A stretch of DNA of 64,000 nucleotides from an uncultured Gemmatimonadales bacterium (GCA_963793305.1 CAWBZV010000002.1:576001-640000), one strand, 5' to 3'. Shown: positions 54,496 to 64,000, numbered from the stretch's first letter. The notes: generated from the letters alone by a model not told the origin. Translations and numbers: made by a program.

Positions 54496-55134
54496 ATGCG
54501 ATTCGCCTTGCTCCTCTCCCTCGTCGCCACGCCCGCTTTCGTCCTGTCGCTCGATTCGACGAAGGGGCTCACGCCAATCCGCGCCACAGTCAGCGCCGTC
54601 ACCTATCACAACCGCCGCGCGGTAAAGCTGACCGACACCGGCGACGGCGGCATGGCGCTCGTCAACGACCTGGACTTCCACTCCGGTACGATCGTCGTGC
54701 ACGTCGCCGCGGTGCCGGTCCCGACAATCGACACCTCGTCCCGCGGGTTCGTAGGTCTTGCGTTCCGTAGCTCGGCCGACGGGAATCGATACGAGAACCT
54801 GTACCTGCGCATGACCAACGGCCGCGCCGACGACCAGCTCAGGCGCAACCACTCGGCGCAGTACGAATCGATTCCCGACGCTCCGTGGCACACGCTCCGC
54901 GAGAAGAGCCCCGGGAAATACGAGTCATACGTCGACCTCCGGGCCGGCGAGTGGACGACCATTCGTATCGTCGTTCACGGCAACCACGCGGAGCTCTTCG
55001 TGAACGACGCCGATCAGCCCTGCCTCGTCGTCAGCGATCTCATGCTCGGCGACACGCACGGACGGATCGCCCTATGGATCGGCCCGGGCACGATCGGCTA
55101 CTTCTCGCGCCTGACGGTCGAAGCGGCGCCCTAA
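54496..55134 (+). CDS. Secreted DUF1080/ConA-like hypothetical protein
   Basis: Signal peptide; RGFVGLAFR, YLR..NGRADDQLRRNH, GKYESY, GRIALW. Confidence 0.7.
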   Translation: MRFALLLSLVATPAFVLSLDSTKGLTPIRATVSAVTYHNRRAVKLTDTGDGGMALVNDLDFHSGTIVVHVAAVPVPTIDTSSRGFVGLAFRSSADGNRYENLYLRMTNGRADDQLRRNHSAQYESIPDAPWHTLREKSPGKYESYVDLRAGEWTTIRIVVHGNHAELFVNDADQPCLVVSDLMLGDTHGRIALWIGPGTIGYFSRLTVEAAP

Positions 55135-55904
55135 CGCATCGCGCTCACGACGCGCGAGGTCAGGAATGTCACGGTGTCGAAGCCGTGGGCGCGTAGGCGA
55201 GCTTCGAGTACATCGGGTTCGATACGCGTCAGCCACGGCTCACCGGCGGCCGCGGCACGCTCGGCGATCTCATCGGACTCGTCGGGCGCCTTGGGAGCCG
55301 TGAACGTAAAGACGATTTCGCTCAGGGGTGGCAGCGCGGCCACGAATGCAAACACCGCGTCGACAGCGGATTCCGTGAGATAGACCATGACGCCGAGCCA
55401 GGACACGAATGTCGCGGCGCGTGGATCGAAGCCGGAGGCCGCGAGGCCGTCCATGAGCGACGTCGTCTCGAAGTCGATCGCGACGTGCTCCACGTTCGGC
55501 GGCACAACAATGCCGGCGCCCGCCAAACGCGCTCGCTTGGCGTCGCGGCTCGCGGGATGATCGACCTCGAAGACGCGAAGGGGCGCGGCCCACGCGGGTT
55601 GCCGATACGCGAACGTGTCATATCCCGCGCCGAGGACGATGCATTGGCGGACCCCTCGGGCGACGGCCTCGGCCAGCCGATCCTCGGCGTGCCGGCTTCG
55701 CGCGACGACGTGGAGGAGAAGCCGCCGCACCGGCGGCGCGTCGAAGCGCTCCGGATTCGCCCGAATGCGATCGATGACCTCCGGCTCGAGGAGGCGCAAG
55801 ACGACCGGGTCCTCGAGGATGTGCGGAGGGCTGTCGAGCAACTGGTGCGCGGCCCGGAGCGTCGCGACGGCAAGCGCGGTCGCGCTCGCGGCGCGATCCG
55901 TCAC
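55131..55904 (-). CDS. LCM-family class I SAM-dependent methyltransferase
   Basis: TAL.VA.LRA.H, VLGAGYDT, VFEVDHP, SWLGVMVYL; GTG start overlaps the upstream TGA. Confidence 0.9.
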   Translation of the reverse strand: MTDRAASATALAVATLRAAHQLLDSPPHILEDPVVLRLLEPEVIDRIRANPERFDAPPVRRLLLHVVARSRHAEDRLAEAVARGVRQCIVLGAGYDTFAYRQPAWAAPLRVFEVDHPASRDAKRARLAGAGIVVPPNVEHVAIDFETTSLMDGLAASGFDPRAATFVSWLGVMVYLTESAVDAVFAFVAALPPLSEIVFTFTAPKAPDESDEIAERAAAAGEPWLTRIEPDVLEARLRAHGFDTVTFLTSRVVSAMR

Positions 55905-56152
55905 GGCAGCGGCAGCGCCTGCCGGTCGACGAGAGTCTTCGTCAGAAGCTGCTGCGCGTCCGTCATGCGGCTGAGCTCCGCGGTGACGTCGTCGAGCGCA
56001 ACTTCGACGCGCGCGAGCCGGTTCTCGAAACTGGCGACCGTCGCCGCCGCCACATTCTTGCGTCCGTTGAGCCACAGCCGAACGAGGGTTATCAACGTCG
56101 CGCCGCCGATCGCCATCGACAAGACAGCGACGATCGCATCATTCTGATCCAC
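55901..56152 (-). CDS. TM + coiled-coil paralog 6
   Basis: GGAGG RBS with GTG; ENRLARVEVALDD..ELSRMTDAQQL. Confidence 0.8.
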   Translation of the reverse strand: MDQNDAIVAVLSMAIGGATLITLVRLWLNGRKNVAAATVASFENRLARVEVALDDVTAELSRMTDAQQLLTKTLVDRQALPLP

Positions 56153-56402
56153 GCGACACCTCCGCCGGCAACCCACGTTGAGTGAGCGCCGCCGTCAAGA
56201 ACCGGTGCGACTCGGTCATCCGGCCGATCTCGGCCGACATATCATCGATCGCGACTTCCAGGCGCGCGAGGCGCATCTCGACGTCACCCGACGGCTTGGC
56301 TTTGACAAGGCGTGACTTGTACCAGTAATGCGCGACGCCGACGACCATTCCCGACAGTGACATGAAGACAAAGACCGCGGCAACGGCGTCAGGCCCCCCC
56401 AT
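56139..56402 (-). CDS. TM + coiled-coil paralog 5
   Basis: EMRLARLEVAIDDM..EIGRMTESHRF. Confidence 0.8.
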   Translation of the reverse strand: MGGPDAVAAVFVFMSLSGMVVGVAHYWYKSRLVKAKPSGDVEMRLARLEVAIDDMSAEIGRMTESHRFLTAALTQRGLPAEVSRGSE

Positions 56403-56655
56403 GCGCGGCCTCCGACGATCTCTCCGCCAGAAGTTTCGTGACGAACTGCTGCCCTTCGGTCACCCGCGTCAACTCGGCGGCCATGTCGTCAATGGCAACC
56501 TCGAGCCGCGCGAGCCGCATCTCGACATCGGCCGGTGCCCTGATCCGCTCGTTCTTCAATCGCACCAACTTCGTGACGTAGTGACCGGCGCCGATCACGA
56601 CCAACGCGATCGACGCAAAGAAGACCATCCCCGCGAATGCCTCAGCGGGATTCAC
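56389..56655 (-). CDS. TM + coiled-coil paralog 4
   Basis: EMRLARLEVAIDDM..ELTRVTEGQQF. Confidence 0.82.
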   Translation of the reverse strand: MNPAEAFAGMVFFASIALVVIGAGHYVTKLVRLKNERIRAPADVEMRLARLEVAIDDMAAELTRVTEGQQFVTKLLAERSSEAAHGGA

Positions 56656-56893
56656 GAATCATCTCCGGGGACCGGTCGGCGAGCAGTTTGTTCGTGAACT
56701 GCTGACCTTCGGTCACACGCGACAGCTCTGAGGTGAGATCGTCGATCGCGACCTCCAGCCGTGCGAGGCGCTTCTCAATACCGTCGAGCGCCTCCGGCTT
56801 GGACTGCTGCGTCCCATACTTGACGCCGACCCATATCCAGATCGTGACGGCGACGATCGAGAACACGACGATGAAGACGACTTCCGGCGGCAT
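56642..56893 (-). CDS. TM + coiled-coil paralog 3
   Basis: EKRLARLEVAIDDL..ELSRVTEGQQF. Confidence 0.82.
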   Translation of the reverse strand: MPPEVVFIVVFSIVAVTIWIWVGVKYGTQQSKPEALDGIEKRLARLEVAIDDLTSELSRVTEGQQFTNKLLADRSPEMIRESR

Positions 56894-57168
56894 CAGCGGG
56901 ATTCCCGCGACGGCAGCGCCCCGACGGCGCCCCGCTCAGTCAAGACGTTCGTCAAGAACTGCTGCCCTTCGGTGACCCGCCCGATCGCGCCGGTGAGATC
57001 ATCGATCGCGACCTCGACCCGTGCGAGGCGCTTCTCATAGGCCTCCAGCGCGCTTGCCGAAGCGCCGCGTTTCGATACCTGCTTGACCATCTCGATAATA
57101 AACCCCATGCCACAGGCGATCGCGACAATGGCGACGACCATATCGAAGGGGTTATTGACGAAATGCAT
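56893..57168 (-). CDS. TM + coiled-coil paralog 2
   Basis: GGAGGAG RBS; EKRLARVEVAIDDL..AIGRVTEGQQF. Confidence 0.82.
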   Translation of the reverse strand: MHFVNNPFDMVVAIVAIACGMGFIIEMVKQVSKRGASASALEAYEKRLARVEVAIDDLTGAIGRVTEGQQFLTNVLTERGAVGALPSRESR

Positions 57169-57180
57169 AGTCGCTCCTCC

Positions 57181-57444
57181 CTACGGTCCGAGGCGCCTCG
57201 AGGTTTCGGGGTCCGCCAGGACCTTCGTTAAGAACTGCTGGCCCTCGCCAATCTTGGTGATTTCGCCAGCAAGATCATCCAGTGCGACTTCAACGCGTGC
57301 CAGGCGCCGTTCCAGCGACTCCAGCGCCTCCGGTCCCGCCGAGGAACTGCGCTTGTAGCCGATCCACTTCGAGCCGATGACCAGAACGGCGATCATGCCG
57401 AACATCGAGACGGGTACGGCGACTTCCGGTCCGATATACATCAT
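57181..57444 (-). CDS. TM + coiled-coil paralog 1
   Basis: ATGA overlap with the uvrA stop; ERRLARVEVALDDL..EITKIGEGQQF. Confidence 0.82.
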   Translation of the reverse strand: MMYIGPEVAVPVSMFGMIAVLVIGSKWIGYKRSSSAGPEALESLERRLARVEVALDDLAGEITKIGEGQQFLTKVLADPETSRRLGP

Positions 57445-60288
57445 ATCGTATCTAACGTCATCGCGAACCGCGCGGTGTCAACTGGCTTGCTCGGCCTCGG
57501 CAGGACCGTGCGAAGCCAGCGTCCGGTATGAGACGACTCGACCGCGGCCACGTCCTCGGGCCGGCCCATGGCGACGACCCGTCCACCGTGCATACCGGCC
57601 TCGGGCCCGAGGTCGATGACCCAGTCCGCCAGCTTGATCACATCCAGGTTGTGCTCGATCAGGACCAGCGTATGACCCTGATCGACCAACCGGTCCAGCA
57701 CGTTGGCCAGCCGGCGAATGTCTTCGAGGTGCAGGCCAGTCGTCGGCTCATCGAGAATGTAGAGCTTCCGCCCACCCGATCGCGCGGATGCCGCGAGCTC
57801 ACGGGCGATCTTGATCCGCTGTGCCTCGCCACCAGACAGCGTGGTGGCGGGTTGTCCCAAGTGGAGATAGCCGAGTCCGACTCGCTGCAACTGCCACAAC
57901 GTCGACGTCAGACGATCTTGACCGTGAAAGAATCGCACGGCTTCCTCGACGGTGAGGTCGAGCACCTGCGCGATGTTCTTGTTCTTGACCGTCACTTCCA
58001 GCACATCCGACCGGAATCGCCGCCCACCACACACGTCGCATGGAACGAACACGTCGGCCATGAACACCATCTCGACCTCGATATACCCCGCGCCCTCGCA
58101 GTTCTCGCATCGCCCGCCCGCGACGTTGAACGAGAATGTGCCCGGCGTATACCGCCGCTCCCGCGCCAATGCGGTGTCGGCAAAGAGACGCCGAATCTCA
58201 TCGTAGGCCTTGATGTACGTCACGGGATTGGATCGCGGAGATCTCCCGATCGGAGCCTGGTCGATCAGCACGACGTCATCGAACGACTCTGCGCCCGTTA
58301 GAGACGTATAGCTGCCGACCGGCTCACCCAAGTGGCGTTTCGCCGAGTTGTCTCCTCGCAGCCGCGTCTCCAATGCCCTGTACAACACATCGTGCACGAG
58401 CGTGCTTTTCCCCGAGCCCGACACGCCGGTGACGACCGTCAGCGCACCAATAGGGATGCGAATGTCGACGCCCTGCAAATTGTGCTGGCGTGCGCCAGTC
58501 AGGGTCAGCCACGGAGGACCGACGGGCCGTCTCTTCGGAATCGGGATCGTCCGGAGGCCGGTGAGATATTGGCCGGTCAGCGGACTCTCGCTCGCCCGGG
58601 AAATCGGGCCGGCGAAGACGATACGGCCGCCGTTATCCCCGCTGCCTGGCCCCAGCTCGATCATGTAGTCCGCATGCCGCACCGCTTCGAGATCGTGCTC
58701 GACGACCAGGACGGTATTTCCGGCATCGCGAAGCCGCATCAATAATCTCAATAACCGATCGATATCCCTCGGGTGCAGCCCGATGGATGGCTCGTCGAGC
58801 ACATACAGCGTGTCGACCAACCGTGAGCCGAGCGAGTTGGCGAGCGCGATACGTTGTGCTTCGCCGCCCGAGAGCGTTCGCGCGGCTCGATTCAATGAGA
58901 GGTAGCCGAGTCCGACGTCGACGAGAAACTGGAGCCGGTCGCGCGCCTCTCTGAGCACCGTCGTCGCGATCGTTTGCTCGAACGGCGTCAGTGGCAGGCC
59001 GTCGAGCCACGGCAACAGGACGTCGACCGGCAACTCGGCCACTTCGGCGATCGTGCGGTCGGCGATGCGCACGTGCAGCGCGGCCGGCTGCAGCTTCGCG
59101 CCGTGGCACGACGGGCAGACCCTCGCCGATTGATACTGCCGCAGAAAGACCCTGATGTATTGCTTGTAGCGCTTCGTCTCGAGGCGTTTCAAGAACGGGA
59201 AGATGCCGACGTACGGCTTCGTCTGGCCGCGGATCGGTGCGTTGAGCAGCACCTGGCGCTGCTCGGCCGTCAGATCGCGCCACGGAACGTTCAGCGGGAT
59301 CTTTTCGCGCCGCGCAAAGTCGGCGAGCGTCCGGCGCGTGCCGTCGTAGCGTGGCTTCTCCCACGGATCGATCGCGCCATCGCTCAGCGTCTTGCTCGGG
59401 TCAGGGACGATCAGCGACTCATCGTACTCCAGCACCGCGCCAAACCCGTTACAGGTCGGACAGGCGCCTCTCGGATTATTGAATGAGAAGAGCTGCGGCG
59501 TCGGCTCGGGGGCCACGGTGCCATCGTTTGGACACTCGAAGCGTTCGGTATACCGGTGCTCGACGTCGCCGACCAGGATCACGCAGTCGCCGTCACCTTC
59601 GGCGAACGCCGTTCCCACCGCATCGGCTAGGCGGGATGCGATGTCGGGGCCCATGACGAGGCGGTCGACGACCACCAGCGGGTTCACCGCCGTTGTCAGG
59701 TCGATCGCCCAGGTCTTGCAGCTCTTGCAGTTCGCGCATAGCGCCGCCCACGCTGACGCGAACGAACCCCCGCGCTTGCAGGTTCTCGACGACGACGGCG
59801 TGAGATACTTGATCGGAAACCCGGAGAGGGAAGGCGACAGCGAACCGGGTTCCCGCCGCGAAGGCCAGAACGGCGTCAGTGACCGATTGAACCGTGGAGG
59901 GCCGCAACTCGCGGCCGCACACGGAACAGAACGTGTGCCCGATGCGAGCCCACAGCAGCCGGAGATAGTCGTAGATCTCCGTGGCCGTGCCAACCGTGGA
60001 GCGCGATGTCTTGGTCGGGTTCTTTTGCTCGATCGCGACGGCTGGAGACAGGCCGTCGACGATGTCGACGTCCGGCTTCTCCATCCGCTCCAGAAACTGC
60101 CGCGCGTAGGCCGACAGCGACTCGACGTAGCGCCGCTGCCCCTCGGCGTAGATGGTATCGAACGCGAGCGACGACTTCCCCGACCCCGACGGACCCGTGA
60201 TCACGGTCAGGGCTCGGCGGGGAATGTCGAGGTCGAGATTTTTCAGGTTGTGTTGCCGCGCACCGCGAACGATCAGCCGGTCCTTCAC
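57441..60288 (-). CDS. uvrA: Excinuclease ABC subunit A; apparent +1 frameshift near 59709
   Basis: GARQHNLK, GPSGSGKSSLAFDT, EGQRRY, FSFNNPRGAC, two LSGGEAQR, GVSGSGKST, DEPTTGLH. Confidence 0.95.
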
Positions 60289-60309: not shown

Positions 60310-60404
60310 GGGGGGTCCGGGGGGCGTAGTTGGGGTATGCCCCCCGGAGGCGAACCGACCAGTTGAGCGGCGCGAAGCGCTGCGTCAACGCGCCGCGGAG
60401 CGGC
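60310..60404 (+). repeat. G-run hairpin plus hairpin dispersed repeat copy B, upstream of uvrA
   Basis: TCCGGGGGGC...GCCCCCCGGA stem, then AACCGACCAGTTGAGCGGCGCGAAGCGCTGCGTCAACGCGCCGCGGAGCGGC. Confidence 0.8.
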
Positions 60405-60669
60405 CGCCGCGCAGGATTCGGCCGAGGATCAACACGAGCGCGGCACCGAGCGTGGCCAGTGCGAGCGATCGCGGATCGAAATGGTCGGCCGTGACGGTGC
60501 CCCAGCCGAGTCTCGTTCCGATGTAGCCGCCAAGAAATGCCCCGATAATCCCGAGGCCGGTGGTGACGAGGCACCCGGCGGGGTCGCGGCCGGGCAAGAG
60601 AAACTTGGCCAATGCACCGGCCACGAATCCGAGGATGACCCAATGGAGCCAGAGCGGCACGTGTGCCAA
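60385..60669 (-). CDS. GlsB/YeaQ/YmgE family membrane protein
   Basis: WVILGFVAGALAKFLLPGRDP.GC..T..LGIIGAFLGG. Confidence 0.9.
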   Translation of the reverse strand: MAHVPLWLHWVILGFVAGALAKFLLPGRDPAGCLVTTGLGIIGAFLGGYIGTRLGWGTVTADHFDPRSLALATLGAALVLILGRILRGGRSAAR

Positions 60670-62573: not shown

Positions 62574-63857
62574 ATGCCCTACCTTCAACTCAATGAACGG
62601 CAGTTCGCCCTCCGCGTTGGTGAGACGCGGGTTGGCGGGGGCGCGGAAGCGGACGTACTCGTCCCTGGGGGCGACGCATCCGTACAAGCCGTCGTTGATC
62701 TGTCCCGCGAGAGTGCCGTTTCTATCCGCCGTGCGTTCTCCTCGGCGGCCGTTCGGGTCAACGGAGTGCAGCTGGGTGCGGAGCCCACACCGCTCATTCA
62801 TGGCGACAAGATCGAGATTGGTGGGGCTGAGCTCTTCTTTGGAGATGACCGCAAAGGGGGCAGTACCCAGTTCATTTCCGCTGTCAGCCTCCCCGATTTC
62901 AAGAATCTCAAGCCGCCCGCGCCTGGCAAAGCGACCCTGGCGACCGGCGGGCGCGTGATCTCGCTCGTCGATGGACGCGAATATCAGATTCCCGCGGCCG
63001 GCATCTCGTTCGGCCGCGACGCGGGTTGTGACGTCGTGATCCCCTCCTCGGAGGTCTCCCGTCGCCACGCCGAGATTGCGCCTGGCGATGTCGGTTATGT
63101 CCTGAGCGACACCAGCACGAACGGGATTTTTGTCAACGGCCAACGCGTTGACGCGATGCAAGTCCTCGGTCGAGGTGACGTAGTTCGGATCGGCACGGAA
63201 GAGTTTCGGTTCTACGCCGACCAAGCGAGCGCGTCTCCAAAGGTGGAAGCGGCGGCGGACCCTGCGGCGGCAAGTGCGCCAACTCCGGCCGTGGCGGCGC
63301 CATTTCCACGTCAAGCATTGGCCACGCTCGAAGTGGTCGGTACGAGTCCCATGAAGGGCCAGACGTTCTCGATCGTATCGGTCCTGGCGCACGTGGGGCG
63401 CGGGCCGCACAACGATATCGTGATCGTCGAGGAGAGCGTGTCCGATTCCCACGCCAAGCTCCAACGGCGCGAGGGCGTGTGGTATGTCACAGACCTCGGC
63501 TCGACGAACGGGACATATATTGGCGGCCGCCGGATAGCGGCTGAGGAGAAGCTCGCGACCGATGCCGATATTCGCTTCGGTGGCGTGCCGTTGGTCTTCC
63601 GCGCGCTGGTCACGGAACACGTCACCGAGCCCAAGGGCGGCACCCGCCAATTGAACGTCGACGCCATCAAGCGAGCTGCTGCGCCTCCAGCGCCGGTCGC
63701 TGCTCCCGTGAGTGGACCGAGCGCTGCGCCCGCTCCGCGCCCCCGCCCCGTCGCAGCGCCGCCAGCGCCCAAGCGCGCTGGCGTGCCGTGGTGGGCCTGG
63801 TTGGTGGTGATCATCGTCGTCGGCGGCGCCGCGTTCTTTGCCATGCGGATGCGCTAA
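62574..63857 (+). CDS. Triple FHA-domain protein with Pro/Ala linker and C-terminal TM
   Basis: GR...VSRRHA...STNG; GR...VSDSHA...STNGT; degenerate N-terminal FHA. Confidence 0.88.
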
Positions 63858-64000
63858 TGCAGCTGACCTACGCCTGCCGAACAGACGTGGGGATGGTCCG
63901 CGTCGGGAATGAGGACAGCATGTATGCGGAGGCCAATCCGTACCGTGGTGTCTTTATGGTCGCCGACGGCATGGGTGGGCACGCGGCCGGCGAGGTCGCC
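63857..64000 (+). CDS. PP2C-type Ser/Thr phosphatase, partial
   Basis: [13 protein letters not shown]...[19 protein letters not shown] overlap. Confidence 0.92.

Follow-up and report, generated by a model that had tools for sequence, protein, structure and literature searches.

Escherichia coli PspB is a small membrane protein that self-associates and binds PspC (PMC3068692), and PspB duplicates occur in some operons (PMC11237479). Bacillus subtilis has LiaI, another small membrane protein, which is co-induced with the PspA paralog LiaH and anchors it (PMC8144471). The sigma-W regulon of Bacillus holds pspA and flotillins (PMC8144471), and its promoter consensus is TGAAAC followed by CGTA (PMC5758882). 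Then there are the CesT/Tir-PspA dyads of Ravi et al. 2024 (PMC11237479); no array of small membrane proteins with coiled coils figures among the neighbourhood groups that its text describes. The main texts of two Psp surveys (PMC11237479 and PMC9239133) do not name the Gemmatimonadota, and a literature search, confined largely to journals outside subscription and to text rather than survey tables, turned up nothing relevant on PspB or PspA in this phylum. How PspA-type (ESCRT-III-like) proteins are recruited to a damaged membrane beyond Proteobacteria and Firmicutes is the question we address here.

Our material is a stretch of 64,000 nt, which we call the window, from an uncultured Gemmatimonadales bacterium (GCA_963793305.1 CAWBZV010000002.1:576001-640000) whose genome, labelled G000, is 92% complete. 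It contains an array of six small genes. At a probability of about 0.55, we propose that these encode sigma-W-like envelope-stress membrane proteins that would serve as partners of PspA much as PspB or LiaI do. The components of this proposal are not equally firm. Membership of an envelope-stress regulon is very probable; that the proteins act through PspA we favour only a little over its opposite. Predicted co-regulation with pspA is well supported by promoter sequences, and binding to PspA we infer only from gene context and by analogy.

The array occupies 55901-57444 on the minus strand, six consecutive open reading frames of 87, 91, 83, 88, 87 and 83 amino acids, just as the original prediction described them. 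Their starts are 238-276 nt apart, slightly less than the repeat of 250-290 nt it gave, so the tandem arrangement stands and the figure does not. Gene 1 (57181..57444, minus strand, 87 aa), encoding a membrane helix and coiled coil, has a start that overlaps the stop of a second uvrA paralog (57441..60288, minus strand). This uvrA, 52% identical to the uvrA near pspA, is split in this assembly by a one-base insertion near 59710 and is intact in two relatives (G001 and G004). Gene 2 (56893..57168, minus strand, 91 aa) has a strong GGAGGAG ahead of its start, and gene 3 (56642..56893, minus strand, 83 aa) begins within the gene 2 stop. Genes 4 (56389..56655, minus strand, 88 aa, GTG start), 5 (56139..56402, minus strand, 87 aa) and 6 (55901..56152, minus strand, 83 aa) follow, with starts and stops overlapping along genes 2-6. 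For gene 6 the most likely start is the GTG at 56152, not 56176, judging by the GGAGG in front of it and the same start in G001 and G004. An LCM-family methyltransferase gene (55131..55904, minus strand) overlaps the gene 6 stop; it also follows the array in G001, G004 and G005, though not in G002 or G003. Clear ribosome-binding sites had been claimed for several genes, and a GGAG-type sequence does precede four of the six; genes 1 and 3 have none, their starts overlapping instead the stop codon of the preceding gene.

Each protein has a single hydrophobic stretch of 19 residues (Kyte-Doolittle 1.9-2.7) beginning at residue 5-10, with two to five K/R after it and none before, which bears out the N-terminal helix and basic linker first noticed in these sequences. 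Charge on one side only points to an N-out, C-in topology. We infer, then, a family of single-pass inner-membrane proteins with the N-terminus outside and, in the cytoplasm, a coiled coil of 40 residues. The AlphaFold2 model of gene 4 has helices at 3-35 and 42-85 joined by a linker (pLDDT 93.7), and predicted models of both branches of the family, described below, have one N-terminal membrane helix and then a helical domain. The helices do differ greatly beside a common core: paralogs share 19% identity (10-32) ahead of the core, compared with 64% (53-78) inside it. The common core is present in all six, and its TEGQQF element is exact in only three. A sequence search of the PDB gave nothing better than E 0.004, Foldseek gave the gene 4 model no PDB match, and VIA-align gave it generic coiled coils only (best Z 6.4, rmsd 4.8-8.4).

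Are six such similar genes needed? They might be a recent redundant amplification for dosage, their differences functionless, and copy number does vary from 2 to 6 within the genus. The history of the copies makes this very unlikely. A protein tree and a core-DNA tree of 30 sequences from the genus both cluster the copies by array position across genomes, and 36-89% of synonymous core sites differ between paralogs. These position-wise trees also rule out that the cores are alike through gene conversion. Each copy is old and conserved in its own right, with no homogenisation among them. Nei-Gojobori dN/dS, computed on positional orthologs in G001, G004 and G005 (6, 6 and 4 pairs), is 0.036, 0.028 and 0.075 for the core, rising to 0.22, 0.17 and 0.31 for helix plus linker and to 0.33-0.57 for the tail. 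The array genes are real and under purifying selection, including the membrane part of every copy. That they are maintained rather than decaying was thus a sound call: the values are far below 1, and the coil, at 0.03-0.08, is nowhere near it. The picture of diversifying helices fared less well. At 0.17-0.31 the membrane part is not changing fast, and every position keeps its own helix between species, which points to stable, specialised paralogs.

A profile of the six genes, run against 79,356 six-frame ORFs of the genome, finds these six only (E 1e-36 to 1.5e-34; the next match has E 0.5), so there is no seventh copy elsewhere in the 92% of the genome at hand. Nothing reached a curated cut-off in Pfam or NCBIfam, in keeping with the view that no named family was recognisable. 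Nor is the array confined to this genome, since among 24 other genomes in its family 22 carry one to nine matches each. Searched more widely, the profile collected 1,958 cluster representatives with E values no higher than 0.001. The best 80 of 544 confirmed stretches in a GTDB scan are all titled Gemmatimonadota, mostly Gemmatimonadaceae. Other orders have members somewhere in all five genomes searched. In five genomes from other classes of the phylum the family is absent apart from one match in G044 (E 0.003, inside a 441-aa ORF), which we judged to be chance; PspA passes its cut-off in only 1 of 15 genomes from those classes. Among the sequences searched, then, the family was found only in Gemmatimonadota. 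A viral origin was considered and dropped, since not one of 33 pattern matches in viral contigs was confirmed. As for expression, six metatranscriptomes contained only 5-8% of the words; in four of them, contigs of relatives reach into each of the six genes, covering it in part, and some span adjoining genes. This is a weak sign of transcription, as the runs were selected with this stretch and may contain DNA.

Family members turn up at three genomic addresses. (The genomes counted are kin, so the counts that follow are not independent events. One unpublished genome, G012, enters several tallies and supplies one of the 16 promoter training sites described below; it is absent from the kinase-locus promoter counts, and no conclusion depends on it.) The first address is pspA. 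In two sister families, f2 and f3, 29 of 29 loci have members in the 1.5 kb upstream of pspA, directly before a CesT_Tir_1 gene and pspA or before pspA itself; arrays seen whole have 2-10 copies, and at eight f2 loci the array adjoins pspA without an intervening CesT gene. One member sits ahead of CesT-pspA in two of six genomes from other orders, the remaining four having a pspA with no adjoining member. In Gemmatimonadaceae, by contrast with f2 and f3, none of the 21 pspA loci, this genome's included, has a member within 1.5 kb upstream. Here pspA is some 400 kb from the array.

At the second address, in Gemmatimonadaceae, one to four copies have the gene of a membrane histidine kinase on one side and that of an NtrC-type sigma-54 regulator on the other. 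This address accounts for 65 of the best 80 GTDB loci (some of which may duplicate genomes already counted), and 13 of 15 kinase loci in other genera carry members. Small membrane proteins tune some two-component systems. The Gemmatimonadaceae copies could accordingly be accessory subunits of the kinase, tuning its sigma-54 regulator, and a profile of kinase-linked copies alone does find the window's six genes. We nevertheless regard this as quite unlikely, since kinase and regulator adjoin one another with no member between them in all six genomes of this genus, in G006 and at four of four f2/f3 loci; two further objections come from promoters, to which we return.

The third address is peculiar to this genus, where two to six copies follow the second uvrA paralog. 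In f2/f3, too, arrays come after a uvrA, though there it is the other paralog; gene 1 overlaps the uvrA stop, and in several genomes a lone member occurs in a bshC-member-murJ-uvrC-like context. All this could mean that the proteins take part in a DNA-damage response or tether UvrA-type repair proteins at the membrane. It is hard to credit when uvrA and the array have other genes between them in G031, G033, G035, G038 and G039, when nowhere beyond this genus is the second uvrA followed by an array, and when the array has its own predicted promoter downstream of uvrA.

Do members at these addresses belong together? Profiles of the window branch and the pspA-linked branch align in register over 68 columns (probability 95.5%, E 1.6e-8). 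The pspA-linked profile has matches in 15 of 24 Gemmatimonadaceae genomes (best E 1.5e-12), none of them among the six genomes of this genus. At 15 bits or more it recovers 24 of 25 kinase-linked members, one of the six window genes and none of 188 small membrane proteins of this genome, controls that were not chosen for coiled coils. A profile built from the 25 kinase-linked members finds exactly the six window genes (E 1.5e-16 to 4.9e-9; next match 0.09). The window is therefore linked to pspA in two steps, by way of the kinase-linked copies, and on this profile evidence both branches are one family. Their C-terminal boxes differ, ERLDFAERLL in the pspA-linked branch versus SEGQRFTTKLL in the kinase-linked branch, so the partner may have changed.

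What unites the addresses is a predicted promoter. We trained a matrix on CesT upstream regions only (16 sites out of 23 regions), and so on pspA operons alone, and it scores a putative ECF site in the window at 57180..57209 on the minus strand with 20.7 bits: GAAAC at -35 (57207-57203), a 17-nt spacer and CGTA at -10 (57185-57182). The boxes equal the sigma-W consensus. The site falls within the last codons of gene 1 and ends 11 nt before the gene 2 start. Gene 1 thus lies upstream of this strong promoter-like site, and its 3' end holds the predicted promoter for genes 2-6. Five relatives (G001, G004, G005, G003 and G002) have an equivalent site; in G003 both boxes are kept despite a changed spacer and reading frame, and in G002 the site is ahead of the first copy.

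GAAAC-N16/18-CGTA recurs ahead of CesT-pspA and ahead of family genes. With the CesT-trained matrix, 23 of 47 family genes have an upstream site of at least 12 bits versus 13 of 415 other genes. All 22 Gemmatimonadaceae loci with a CesT gene have a CesT-pspA site of at least 12 bits, many of them being in the training set; in this genus that site is weak (12.2-14.3 bits, four of four). At kinase loci, sites of at least 15 bits occur at 10 of 13 with members (nine at the kinase start, one at the kinase 3' end) versus 0 of 11 without. In G023 the kinase is followed by a truncated member-like gene and a promoter site is present; this locus was left out of both groups. Of the GTDB kinase-linked loci, 63 have enough flank, and a forward site is present at 37 of these versus a reverse site at one; in other contexts only 2 of 10 loci have a forward site. 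One ECF-type promoter-like sequence (GAAAC-N17-CGTA) is thus predicted to mark all three addresses, and by these counts the promoter-like sequence common to pspA follows the family genes and not the kinase. It is gone from the kinase where the array is absent, which counts against the proteins being kinase subunits. So does the sigma-54 scan (a -24/-12 pattern with one mismatch allowed), which had no hit upstream of any of 47 family genes or 23 CesT genes, and hits in 2 of 415 controls. A sigma-70 promoter was rejected, its lone site being on the wrong strand and at chance level.

The genome has 548 sites of at least 12 bits. At 17 bits or more there are 31, of which 18 are just upstream of a called gene and 2 antisense, with 1.0 expected. 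Behind these stronger sites are genes for three MacB/FtsX permeases, two ABC ATPases, an outer-membrane efflux protein, a Toastrack protein, a CAAX protease and a BlaI repressor, as well as an operon with a Band-7 gene. This amounts to a predicted sigma-W-like envelope regulon for Gemmatimonadota. A candidate for the ECF sigma itself (G000:C4:72137-72715) is encoded near anti-sigma, Toastrack-type and Bax1-inhibitor genes; an upstream site of at least 12 bits occurs at 9 of 30 orthologous loci, several of these sites being inside the coding region of the preceding gene.

Our preferred explanation, that the proteins are stress-induced partners of PspA, can be put as follows. An ECF sigma recognising GAAAC-N16/18-CGTA would switch on genes 2-6, if the conserved sequence is indeed where transcription begins, and would also serve the CesT-pspA operon and other envelope-stress genes. 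The coils would pack with one another, giving a docking site for PspA and the CesT-like chaperone at the stressed membrane. The genes would have left the pspA operon for the kinase-regulator operon in Gemmatimonadaceae, and in this genus a second move would have put them behind the second uvrA, the promoter being carried along each time; the order of these moves is our reconstruction. The genome has PspA, and within its 92% there is no match to PspB or to PspC (PF04024), which leaves room for another membrane partner. Against the proposal stand the loss of pspA linkage throughout Gemmatimonadaceae, where the kinase-regulator operon is the commonest address, the altered C-terminal box, and G005, which is 94% complete, keeps five copies and has no PspA match. 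The weak CesT-pspA site of this genus, the 548 sites of at least 12 bits, the place of gene 1 upstream of the strong site and the pspA loci of other orders that lack a member count against it as well. Predicted complexes of PspA (residues 1-228, 30-row alignment) with gene 4 (145-row) scored 0.00 in two runs, which speaks neither for nor against binding.

All of the promoter evidence would fit equally well if the proteins were in the same ECF regulon and worked independently of PspA, their coils forming homo- or hetero-oligomers as a scaffold or seal for the membrane, or docking on Band-7, Toastrack or protease complexes. Precedents exist: PspB and PspC of Yersinia protect cells without PspA (PMC9239133), and E. 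coli PspB, as noted, binds itself (PMC3068692). Overlapping starts and stops suggest a fixed stoichiometry, and the 21 Gemmatimonadaceae loci lack pspA linkage to a man. Set against this are the tight linkage to pspA at all 29 f2/f3 loci and in two other orders, and the eight f2 arrays that abut pspA with no CesT gene between. On balance we think action apart from PspA rather unlikely.

We have also entertained a bolder version of the PspA-partner proposal, and hold it to be doubtful. The 2 to 18 non-identical copies per genome would form mixed coiled-coil adaptor bundles, the composition of which would decide where PspA, the bacterial ESCRT-III, polymerises; the Gemmatimonadaceae adaptors, with their rewritten C-terminal box, would in addition couple membrane state to the sigma-54 two-component system. 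If this were true, paralog diversity instead of PspB-PspC would provide a Psp-type sensing layer, one portable as a cassette with its own promoter.

How close is all this to PspB? The original prediction called the likeness superficial, and sequence comparison did not establish a kinship. The PspB cut-offs (PF06667, TIGR02976 and NF006993: 25.6, 51.7 and 90) are not reached in the window, where only gene 3 matches, at 13.5-14.2 bits. Six of 145 relatives reach E 0.1 (best 2.1e-4), and PspB is not among the 25 commonest of 77 families matched by 52 pspA-linked members. PspB scores a median of 9-10 bits on the family profiles, where controls score at most 9-10. Probabilities from hhalign are 28.5% and 15.6% against an enterobacterial PspB alignment that is shallow (Neff 1.5), because the homologs of E. 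coli PspB retrieved were close enterobacterial ones only (82% or more). Both branches have PspB as their nearest named cluster in the ESM Atlas (0.78 and 0.76, to be taken as leads only), and the top cluster there bears the automatic name 'Phage shock protein B family protein' with no Pfam support. Gene context and the common promoter, on the other hand, tie the family to pspA.

Set beside the known systems, the family resembles PspB in size, in its one N-terminal membrane helix and its cytoplasmic helix (PMC11237479), and in having its gene beside pspA, in f2 and f3 though not in Gemmatimonadaceae. It is unlike PspB in that this genome has no PspC, the promoter is of ECF type and not sigma-54, there are up to ten tandem copies, and in Gemmatimonadaceae the array is not beside pspA. 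With LiaI it would share small size and induction alongside a PspA protein and, as with LiaI-LiaH of Bacillus subtilis, it is found with a two-component system. Searches of Pfam and NCBIfam gave no match to the LiaI or LiaI-LiaF-TM family; unlike the multi-helix LiaI-LiaF-TM proteins these have one helix and a coiled coil, and ECF sigma rather than LiaRS control is predicted. The predicted regulon recalls that of sigma-W in Bacillus subtilis, with the same TGAAAC and CGTA boxes and with pspA, a Band-7 operon, transporters and proteases among its targets, in a diderm phylum this time and with only a candidate for the cognate sigma; the Bacillus regulon has no known target from this small-protein family. 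Here pspA comes after a CesT_Tir_1 gene (PF22550), which recalls the CesT/Tir-PspA dyads (Ravi et al. 2024, PMC11237479). The family thus supplies candidate membrane partners of PspA for a whole class of common soil bacteria, and the window adds a branch without pspA linkage that a common promoter would keep in the same regulon. This is the expansion of a known theme and not new chemistry, and its mechanism is a proposal. By analogy we would say that the family works like PspB or LiaI, while stopping short of calling it PspB.

A weaker promoter-like sequence lies ahead of gene 1 on the minus strand (57452-57481, 6.1 bits against our matrix for ECF, sigma-W-like promoters). It reads TGACAC-N17-CGTT, includes a perfect TTGACA and ends 7 nt before gene 1, which could be transcribed from it as a nearly leaderless message. 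The site is retained in G001, G004 and G005, relatives in the same genus. Scanning the whole source genome, G000, with the matrix gave 31 sites of at least 17 bits, a set that we predict from sequence to be a sigma-W-like regulon; four of the proteins in it are unnamed and only 66-84 aa long. Many of these sites end 2-30 nt short of a start codon, which suggests that their transcripts are short or leaderless.

Compared with G004, the array is free of gaps. Three other genes in the window, a DapA-like gene (50912), uvrA (59710) and an ABC transporter (61114), are each split by a single-base insertion, and these insertions are probably assembly errors. G001 carries genes 1-2 in two slightly different versions, both at contig ends (the end of C73 and the start of C7), probably reflecting a mixture of strains rather than two arrays. 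In five genomes of the genus, a small transglycosylase-associated membrane gene (PF04226; window 60385-60660, minus strand) lies upstream of the second uvrA. The triple-FHA membrane protein and PP2C-type phosphatase gene that follow the ABC transporter (window 62574-64000) are conserved within the genus.

The family also lives elsewhere. One genome of the sister family f3 and four from other orders (L111:5502-5795; also L164, L165, L168 and L169) each carry a single member at a site flanked by bshC on one side and, on the other, by murJ and then a uvrC-like gene; this is possibly an old location of the family. G007, a further Gemmatimonadota genome, has two identical copies of one member far apart (L028:6325-6585 and L029:6056-6316), both amid mobile-looking genes. 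Long members of 200-250 aa (L042:5594-6235, L044:5316-5945, L046:4809-5567, L049:5622-6317, L056:4891-5565 and L058:5673-7007) have an additional helical region N-terminal to the membrane helix. They show no evident signal peptide and match no named Pfam family, and a promoter-like site accompanies several of them.

The kinase-regulator operon of G000 (C10:168051-172960, L063) extends into an Omp85-like protein and a further protein, whose ortholog in another Gemmatimonadota genome, G006, weakly matches DUF4390 (E 0.005). This layout is reminiscent of NtrY-NtrX operons, but the regulator scores under the NtrX cut-off.
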